Source: Escherichia phage SDYTW1-F1-2-2_3
Sequence record: OR296290.1
Direction: 5' to 3' (one strand)
Length of the DNA: 64,000 bases
Shown here: in pieces, positions 19,983 through 20,306 of the stretch
Position numbering within the stretch: the first letter of the stretch is position 1
Layout: the number at the start of each line of letters is the position of its first letter
Notes under the pieces: generated by a model
Database searches by the model: none
Told to the model about the DNA's origin: nothing
The model's input: the letters and a program-made list of their open reading frames with translations, nothing else
Made by a program: the position numbers and the translations under genes

Positions 19983-20306
19983 CTATTTAAGTTTGAGGCT
20001 AATGTTAAGGTGCATACATGCCCTGTTCTGTACAGCAGCATAACTTCTACCGAGCATGTCAGCCATTCTCTGAATAGACATGAACCCAGCATTACGGATA
20101 AGGAACTGGTCTTCTTCTTTAGACCACTTGACTCGGATTACAGCTCTAGAAATACCGAACTTAGTGCAAGCTGTATTAACTGCATTCTCCGTTACATTCA
20201 TAATCTGAGCAACTTCTTGAACCGAGTACTCTTTGATTAGTCTCCGAAGATTTTCAATCTGCATCGGAGTCCATATAGTTCTTCGAGCTTTCATTTTACC
20301 ACCCAT
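19983..20306 (-). CDS. DNA-binding protein with two tandem Myb/SANT-like HTH repeats
   Basis: WTPMQIENLRRLIKEYSVQEVAQIM... and WSKEEDQFLIRNAGFMSIQRMADMLGRSYAAVQNR repeats. Confidence 0.5.
   Translation of the reverse strand: MGGKMKARRTIWTPMQIENLRRLIKEYSVQEVAQIMNVTENAVNTACTKFGISRAVIRVKWSKEEDQFLIRNAGFMSIQRMADMLGRSYAAVQNRACMHLNISLKLK

Follow-up and report, generated by a model that had tools for sequence, protein, structure and literature searches.

Our analysis of a 64,000-nt stretch of phage DNA (hereafter, the window) suggests that the minus-strand ORF at 19983-20306 encodes a small early protein, gp99, which is probably a monomeric, sequence-specific dsDNA-binding protein with two unlike helix-turn-helix (HTH) repeats, related to the D5 protein of phage T5 and acting on transcription or some other DNA transaction. 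According to this proposal, gp99 would comprise two tandem three-helix HTH repeats of the kind present in the GcrA DNA-binding domain (DBD), Myb and Cbp2, joined by a short basic linker, and would be a minimal two-repeat member of a phage family that includes T5 D5 (PHROG 323). The protein would bind dsDNA as a monomer, with the third helix of each repeat placed in successive major grooves and the linker running over the DNA backbone, as in R2R3 Myb and Cbp2, and would influence the transcription of phage or host DNA, or another transaction involving that DNA, in the early phase of infection.

Nucleotide comparison assigns the window to a Kuravirus, i.e., a phiEco32-like podophage of the Gordonclarkvirinae, and the 3-kb stretch around the gp99 gene matched 108 phage records at 89-93% identity, nearly all of them from phiEco32-group Escherichia phages. 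By homology, the ORF is the orthologue of gene 99 of phiEco32 (phi32_99, YP_001671844); the corresponding gene of phage MN03 is PQC56_gp105, and the record label reads "transcriptional regulator, D5-like". A tblastn search with gp99 gave matches in 105 phage records, with about 75 Kuravirus-type records carrying the conserved gene. EC.W14-3 and PH444 encode a protein with 100% identity to gp99; identity reaches at least 95% in 61 records, is 95-99% to the orthologues of most Kuraviruses and falls to 63-64% at the amino acid level for those of phiEco32 and VTCCBPA_211. The orthologue of Salmonella phage 7-11 (SaPh711_gp116), which Lavysh et al. also give as a phi32_99 homologue, shares 34% identity with gp99. 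No gp99 paralogue was found elsewhere in the 64-kb window. Comparison with the EP335 orthologue revealed 30 synonymous versus 11 non-synonymous codon differences, and the codon pattern indicates that gp99 is a real gene under purifying selection.

An earlier, sequence-only reading of this DNA had described a 107 amino acid product. The 107 amino acid ORF is present on the minus strand and its in-frame ATG at 20306 would yield that version, but translation most likely begins at the fifth codon (ATG at 20294), giving a protein of 103 amino acids, because a GGAGG ribosome-binding site (RBS) directly precedes ATG AAA GCA CGA (MKAR) in phages that lack gene 100, namely MN03, KarlSchell, ManiMatter and VTCCBPA_211. 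Most database copies of gp99 are 103 amino acids long, which also supports this start. The protein contains 17 K+R versus 8 D+E (net charge about +9, pI 10.3) and only two Cys residues, and NCBIfam returned no informative match to it. The features assigned to this locus are as follows:

19983-20306, minus strand: ORF of 107 amino acids (from the ORF list)
19983-20294, minus strand: most likely CDS of the gp99 orthologue, 103 amino acids plus stop, pI 10.3 (from the ORF list, orthologue annotation and start inference)
20145-20276, minus strand: repeat 1, amino acids 7-50 of the 103 amino acid gp99, with recognition helix ENAVNTACTKF; variable, cassette-like module (from AlphaFold2, nucleotide identity and codon counts)
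20130-20144, minus strand: basic inter-repeat linker, AVIRV inside SRAVIRVK (KRKRQRR in the phiEco32 allele; from pLDDT and alignments)
19986-20129, minus strand: repeat 2, amino acids 56-103 of gp99, KWSKEEDQFLIRNAGFMSIQRMADMLGRSYAAVQNRACMHLNISLKLK; constant module (from AlphaFold2 and nucleotide identity)

Both copies of the W-[TS]-x-x-[EQ]-[ID]...A-V repeat noticed in the sequence-only reading were located, as W12-T-P-M-Q-I...N-A-V and W61-S-K-E-E-D...A-A-V (107-aa numbering). The two halves of gp99 align over 46 residues with 30% identity (E = 2e-4 in a single comparison), an internal similarity that is above chance by this alignment. An AlphaFold2 model built on an 8-sequence alignment (mean pLDDT 79) predicts a helix-turn-helix protein with two three-helix bundles, whose helices span residues 14-26, 29-35 and 40-49, and 63-72, 78-85 and 89-106 (107-aa numbering). 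Linker residues 51-60 have a lower pLDDT (67), and repeat 2 ends in a long basic C-terminal helix.

The closest solved folds to this model are the GcrA DBD, Reb1, Cef1, the R2R3 MYB protein WER and the CoREST SANT domain. A Foldseek search of the PDB with the whole model returned nothing significant (best E = 0.38), the top, non-significant matches being Cef1/CDC5L, Cbp2 (2lvs), the Tc3 bipartite domain and DUX4; a PDB sequence search gave c-Myb (E = 1.3e-3) and Cef1 (E = 1.5e-3) as its best matches. The sole Pfam family to pass its threshold was Sigma70_r4_2 (PF08281; 30.2 bits, cut-off 25.7; residues 22-46), and Myb_DNA-binding (PF00249) scored 21.3 bits, below the gathering cut-off of 24.4, and covered only residues 58-71. 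The model shows the tandem trihelical fold of Myb/SANT proteins, and the Myb pattern of three aromatic residues is absent, as gp99 has one Trp per repeat (W8 and W57, 103-aa numbering) with aliphatic residues at the other core positions. The proposal of HTH units resembling Myb/SANT or sigma region 4 is supported by the two predicted trihelical bundles, the c-Myb match and the Sigma70_r4_2 score. Pfam and NCBIfam detected no sigma region 2 in the 103 amino acids of gp99, which is not a sigma factor.

Myb/SANT-type folds also serve in protein binding (SANT) and in RNA or protein binding (Cef1), which is a counterpoint to DNA binding. gp99 might act through protein contacts, either as a SANT-like adaptor or as a mimic of sigma region 4 that engages host RNA polymerase or a host factor, aiding takeover beside gp79 and gp36. 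The Sigma70_r4_2 score, the presence of SANT and CoREST among the fold matches, and the location of gp99 in an early cluster thought to carry host-takeover genes (PMC8948821) are consistent with this possibility, and the rapid, cassette-like divergence of repeat 1 (see below) would fit an arms race with a host protein. However, the Sigma70_r4_2 match spans only the generic HTH at residues 22-46, gp99 is strongly basic, and the families to which it is most firmly linked bind DNA (T5 D5, the GcrA DBD, Cbp2, R2R3 Myb and the targeting modules of endonucleases), so that we hold action through protein contacts to be fairly unlikely. DNA binding, our preferred reading, is suggested by the predicted fold and by homology to these families.

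To place gp99 among its relatives, a profile of the orthologues was searched against 1.8 billion representative proteins, which returned 1737 proteins at E ≤ 1e-3. Most of them are 300-880 amino acids long and contain 3-9 tandem copies of a unit of ~47 amino acids with the consensus xxWTxEExxxLxxLxxxxxxxEIAxxLGRSxxSxxxKAxxLGL, and a few are ~100 amino acid two-repeat proteins resembling gp99 (P0062 and P0096). Many uncharacterized ~100 amino acid phage proteins in BFVD share the two-HTH fold. A profile made from 30 single repeat units matched Cbp2 (2lvs; E = 3.5e-10), c-Myb (E = 1.2e-5) and the GcrA DBD (E = 3e-5).

The proposal that this ORF encodes a candidate transcription regulator agrees with its membership in PHROG 323 beside T5 D5 and with the existing "D5-like" annotation, the function itself being a prediction. 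Residues 3-101 of gp99 align with positions 88-190 of the 319-position PHROG 323 profile (E = 4.1e-29, 103 bits), and T5 D5 (T5.118, 255 amino acids) matches the same profile with E = 1.2e-71. Both proteins are built from a W/F-T-P-[ED]-[EQ]-E...EIA...G[KR]...[KR]xxxL repeat, which is visible in D5 as the units SPWTPEQEAELVDFL...YAEIA, RSFTPDEETDFV...IEAIAAHFGRNIKQIRGKALSL and MTVAEIAEKTGKSERGVKSMLSRRGL, and hhalign places repeats 1 and 2 of gp99 in register with two D5 repeats (E = 6e-4); direct pairwise BLAST of gp99 with D5 was not significant (E = 0.45). The RefSeq note on D5 describes an early DNA-binding protein that is needed for replication and late transcription and is involved in shut-off. 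The two proteins differ in that D5 has three to four repeats and an Ala/Lys-rich C-terminal tail within its 255 amino acids, whereas gp99 has two repeats and covers about one-third of the profile. In phiEco32, the temporal switch is attributed to gp36 and gp79 (PMC8948821), and none of our results points to gp99 as its controller.

As for the other relatives, gp99 has an HTH domain of the type found at the N terminus of Caulobacter GcrA (PDB 5yiu), where the DBD, an HTH acting as a monomer, uses helices 2-3 to read 7 bp in the major groove (PMC5887438). GcrA combines one HTH with a sigma-70-interacting domain bearing a CCCH zinc motif (PMC5887438), whereas gp99 consists of two HTHs with nothing beyond repeat 2; the Pfam GcrA family (PF07750) did not match it. 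In architecture, gp99 resembles archaeal Cbp2, which binds CRISPR repeat DNA and whose ~105 amino acids likewise form two imperfect HTH repeats joined by a basic linker (PMC3597662). Cbp1 and Cbp2 are archaeal CRISPR-repeat binders, whereas gp99 is encoded by a phage genome without CRISPR; gp99 alone gave no significant match to Cbp models and none to NCBIfam HTH_Cbp1, the match appearing only with the profile of related units. Compared with R2R3 Myb proteins (c-Myb, WER, Cef1/Cdc5), gp99 keeps only the first of the three spaced Trp residues, and its helix 3 and tail motif (xxLGL / FGIS) are of the bacterial GcrA/Cbp type, unlike R2R3 Myb.

The gp99 module is also found as the DNA-targeting part of phage HNH and other endonucleases (PHROG 8446 and 1891, mycobacteriophage HNH genes, and BFVD entries). 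It is conceivable that gp99 descends from a homing endonuclease and is now a free-standing module for DNA targeting, which would either have a nuclease partner provided in trans or shield a target from cleavage. The two PHROG HNH-endonuclease families match gp99 with E = 6e-6 and 2.7e-5, mycobacteriophage HNH genes contain the module, several endonucleases are among the BFVD matches, the gene bears the label "endonuclease" in some Kuravirus records, and endonuclease insertions occur close by in related phages. Set against this, Pfam and NCBIfam revealed no nuclease family in gp99, whose two HTH repeats occupy the entire 103 amino acids, no nuclease gene adjoins it in the window, and its stable synteny, purifying selection and conservation as far as phage 7-11 argue for an autonomous function and not for a remnant. 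An origin and role of this kind appear quite unlikely, and we continue with gp99 as a DNA-binding protein acting in its own right.

Comparison of the window with phiEco32 revealed a mosaic within gene 99. The two gp99 proteins share position, length and flanking genes, and their repeat 2 is identical, whereas repeat 1 is another allele. Nucleotide identity per 30-nt step along the gene is 77, 27, 60, 40, 53, 43, 93, 100, 97 and 100%; thus nt 31-180, which cover most of repeat 1, are 27-60% identical and repeat 2 is 93-100% identical. Of the genes on either side, gene 98 shows 92% and gene 100 shows 88% identity. Codons 1-52 differ by 33 non-synonymous and 10 synonymous changes, and codons 53-103 by 5 and 3. 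The recognition helix of repeat 1 is ENAVNTACTKF in the window and KSVISRACSNF in phiEco32, a third allele (AQIINAACSRF) occurs in metagenomic copies, and repeat 2 is invariant across all Kuravirus alleles aligned, including the metagenomic ones. Repeat 1 therefore looks like a swapped cassette, with recombination at the linker exchanging one of two putative reading heads. Since the repeat-1 recognition helix differs between alleles, half of the gp99 target may differ between phage lineages, with the constant repeat 2 reading the other half.

A more elaborate version of this idea is that gp99 is a modular, specificity-swapping regulator and a minimal two-repeat counterpart of T5 D5. In such a scheme, the constant repeat 2 would anchor the protein at a conserved phage site (possibly the element with the TAGTACTA core described below, or its own leader) and at least three exchangeable repeat-1 cassettes would retarget the other half-site to lineage-specific phage or host DNA; through recombination at the linker, early regulation or host takeover would then be rewired. 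As a complete scenario, this is unlikely.

The finding that gp99 is a regulator-like protein is ordinary, since identical deposited sequences are already labelled transcriptional regulators; the family assignment and the label of predicted regulator already stand in RefSeq and in BASEL phage records, and the impact on the field is small. The additions made here are incremental. They comprise the architecture of gp99 (a precise fold with two HTH repeats of the GcrA-DBD/Myb/Cbp2 type and a basic linker), its relations to D5, GcrA and Cbp2, the corrected start codon, and repeat 1 as a recombining cassette, which is a new detail. The link to the genetically characterized D5 also leads to the hypothesis that phiEco32-like phages have a third transcription-related factor besides gp36 and gp79.

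A run of small minus-strand ORFs surrounds gp99, in agreement with the small-protein arsenal in which the sequence-only reading had placed it, and its neighbors encode small proteins in PHROGs of unknown function, with no adjacent nuclease gene in the window. Lavysh et al. describe the leftward cluster, in which gp99 lies, as the early class of phiEco32; most of its genes have no known function and are thought to contribute to takeover of the host (PMC8948821). Gene 99 would thus be expressed early, given its position in this cluster. As a separate observation, two minus-strand ORFs of ~72-76 amino acids in the early region (19744-19974 and 20996-21217) both match PHROG 6570, and the ORFs at 23125-23343 and 23354-23572, grouped by eye, are possible further paralogues. 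The group shares the motif G-[DS]-[VI]-F...FW[IL]K[TM], and these proteins look like paralogues of a small multi-copy family flanking gp99.

Upstream of gp99, the following features were identified:

20296-20517, minus strand: gene 100 orthologue, 73 amino acids, no family match (from the ORF list and multi-phage comparison)
20518-20574, minus strand: promoter-like leader with TTGAAT, a spacer of ~17-18 nt, a TATATA-like -10 and the RBS GGAGG (near-invariant in seven phages)
20577-20596, minus strand: GC hairpin resembling an intrinsic terminator, GGGAGGATTCGTCCCCTCCC, plus a T tract (from the hairpin scan and conservation)

Gene 100 is present in the window, phiEco32 and EP335 and absent in the four phages used above to place the gp99 start. 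It sits exactly between the conserved RBS and the gp99 start, taking over that RBS, and only 1 nt separates its stop codon (TAA) from the gp99 ATG, so that translation of the two genes may be coupled. The leader appears to serve the gene 100/gp99 unit and is promoter-like, and other phage records annotate a promoter and a terminator upstream of this unit; the leader does not pass a strict sigma-70 scan. The hairpin at 20577-20596 separates the upstream unit and an RNA candidate (described below) from the gp99 unit. We also compared the leader between the two repeat-1 allele groups for a sign that gp99 regulates its own promoter, and rejected this idea because the leader does not differ between the groups and hence gives no signal of co-variation. 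Our searches, which included this promoter region, yielded no candidate DNA site for gp99.

The RNA candidate is a non-coding stretch of ~235 nt (20575-20812, minus strand) that is almost invariant in seven phages and exceeds the flanking coding DNA in conservation. It begins after the stop of the upstream ORF (20813) and ends in a hairpin, GGGAGGAUUCGUCCCCUCCC, followed by a U tract (20577). A 295-nt query that includes this stretch matched 132 phage records. Typical Kuraviruses show 94-98% identity over the ~235 nt, compared with 87% for Salmonella phage PKM.Hi.22.6 and about 75% for Suseptimavirus-like phages. The stretch is partly present in N4-like Gamaleyavirus phages (G7C, PhAPEC7 and ShWW44), where it lies beside tRNA genes. 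Its minimum free energy relative to shuffled sequences corresponds to z = -3.7, RNAalifold predicts 32 pairs, 9 of them with compensatory changes, and Rfam 15 has no match on the relevant (minus) strand. An exact-motif scan of IMG/VR found the RNA in only nine contigs of about 70-78 kb (one an 8-kb fragment), a size that fits the two phage groups carrying the candidate. Together, these features make the stretch a candidate for a new structured phage RNA, which may surpass the gp99 protein in interest.

The position of this candidate raises the possibility that gp99 binds RNA, for instance the structured candidate itself, which lies immediately before the gp99 transcription unit in every Kuravirus that we examined; the Myb repeats of Cef1/Cdc5, which are among the gp99 matches, contact spliceosomal nucleic acid. 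Nevertheless, the RNA candidate occurs in Suseptimavirus-like and N4-like Gamaleyavirus phages without gp99 at that locus, and we know of no RNA-binding member of the family. We therefore regard RNA as a highly improbable ligand and retain dsDNA as the probable one.

The sequence-only reading had also placed gp99 near a conserved 18-nt element with a palindromic core and had proposed that it binds this element or the phage's repeat arrays. As the sequence of the element was not given there, the best candidate was picked by systematic repeat searches (exact k-mers, all 18-mers on either strand allowing as many as 3 mismatches, and local scans), none of which found a multi-copy 18-mer adjoining the gp99 gene. 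The candidate occurs at two places:

19083-19100, minus strand: candidate 18-nt element, TTTTAGTACTATGACGC[CT], with palindromic core TAGTACTA (from repeat searches)
25126-25143, minus strand: second copy of the same element (from repeat searches)

Two copies were observed versus 0.01 expected, each of them intergenic with a hairpin or terminator within about 40 nt after it. A repeated element with a palindromic core thus exists, but "near" is a generous description since the closest copy lies about 880 nt downstream of gp99, with four genes between. Three other sequences were rejected or set aside as the element: AGGGTAAATAATATGAAGA at 19736, 23992 and 24326, which is an RBS/start junction and marks translation starts; the part of the promoter leader at 20532-20549 that has TTATATAA as its core and occurs in a single copy; and AAGCTCTTAACA at 20807, 9460 and 55273, two of whose three copies lie inside coding sequence. 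The AGGGTAAATAATATGAAGA junction is worth recording in its own right, as it brings a Shine-Dalgarno-like AGGG together with the stop codon (TAA) of the upstream ORF and an ATG, and does so three times on the minus strand of the early region (19736-19754, 23992-24010 and 24326-24344).

Binding of gp99 to the 18-nt element (TTTTAGTACTATGACGC, core TAGTACTA), or to other phage repeat arrays, would have a precedent in the two-HTH proteins Cbp1 and Cbp2, which bind repeated DNA elements (PMC3597662). Moreover, the element is significantly repeated and conserved in Kuraviruses, and repeat 2 of gp99 is constant, like the element. Several observations argue against it, besides the distance from gp99. 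Phages with the phiEco32-type repeat 1 (phiEco32 and VTCCBPA_211) and phages with the window-type repeat 1 (MN03, KarlSchell and ManiMatter) have the same 14-nt core of the element, despite very different recognition helices. The element is also present in OliverMaurmann_Bas86, TH43 and 101114UKE3. In OliverMaurmann_Bas86 and TH43, the upstream RNA region is of the Suseptimavirus-like version (~75% identity). The syntenic stretch that we checked in OliverMaurmann_Bas86 contains no gp99, and neither does its equivalent in SU7; the tblastn matches to gp99 below 60% identity leave at most a few unassigned records, too few for the whole Suseptimavirus-like group. In addition, a palindromic core of 8 bp is what a dimer would read, rather than a monomer whose two repeats differ. 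Because its core is the same across alleles and it is kept where gp99 is absent from the corresponding stretch, the element does not depend on gp99 and does not track the variable reading head. Binding through the constant repeat 2 would be compatible with these observations, although it gained no support. The proposed binding thus found no support, and we consider it very unlikely; the element may possibly be a phage-specific promoter, a processing site or a short transcript.

Two further observations concern other regions of the window. The non-coding region at 27340-28950, which contains early promoters, has four exact copies and one near-exact copy of CGCTCTTTAA on the transcribed (minus) strand. 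The copies in the window are:

28149-28158, minus strand: CGCTCTTTAA repeat
28385-28394, minus strand: CGCTCTTTAA repeat
28660-28669, minus strand: CGCTCTTTAA repeat
28768-28777, minus strand: CGCTCTTTAA repeat
28896-28905, minus strand: CGCTCTTTAA repeat
25371-25380, plus strand: CGCTCTTTAA repeat

One copy reads CGCTCTTTAACAA; five exact 10-mers were counted versus about 0.1 expected, and copies adjoin strong sigma-70 promoters (TTGACA-17-TATAGT at 28728 and TTGACA-17-CATAAT at 28279). The consensus of the boxA antitermination signal of rrn operons and lambda is CGCUCUUUAACAA, which we take the repeats to resemble, and this likeness hints at Nus-factor antitermination of early transcription.

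Finally, a 300-nt direct repeat with 72% identity is present on the plus strand at 42763-43062 and 44878-45177. It spans two adjacent large late genes (41092-44292 and 44332-46485), which suggests a duplicated domain in neighboring structural proteins.
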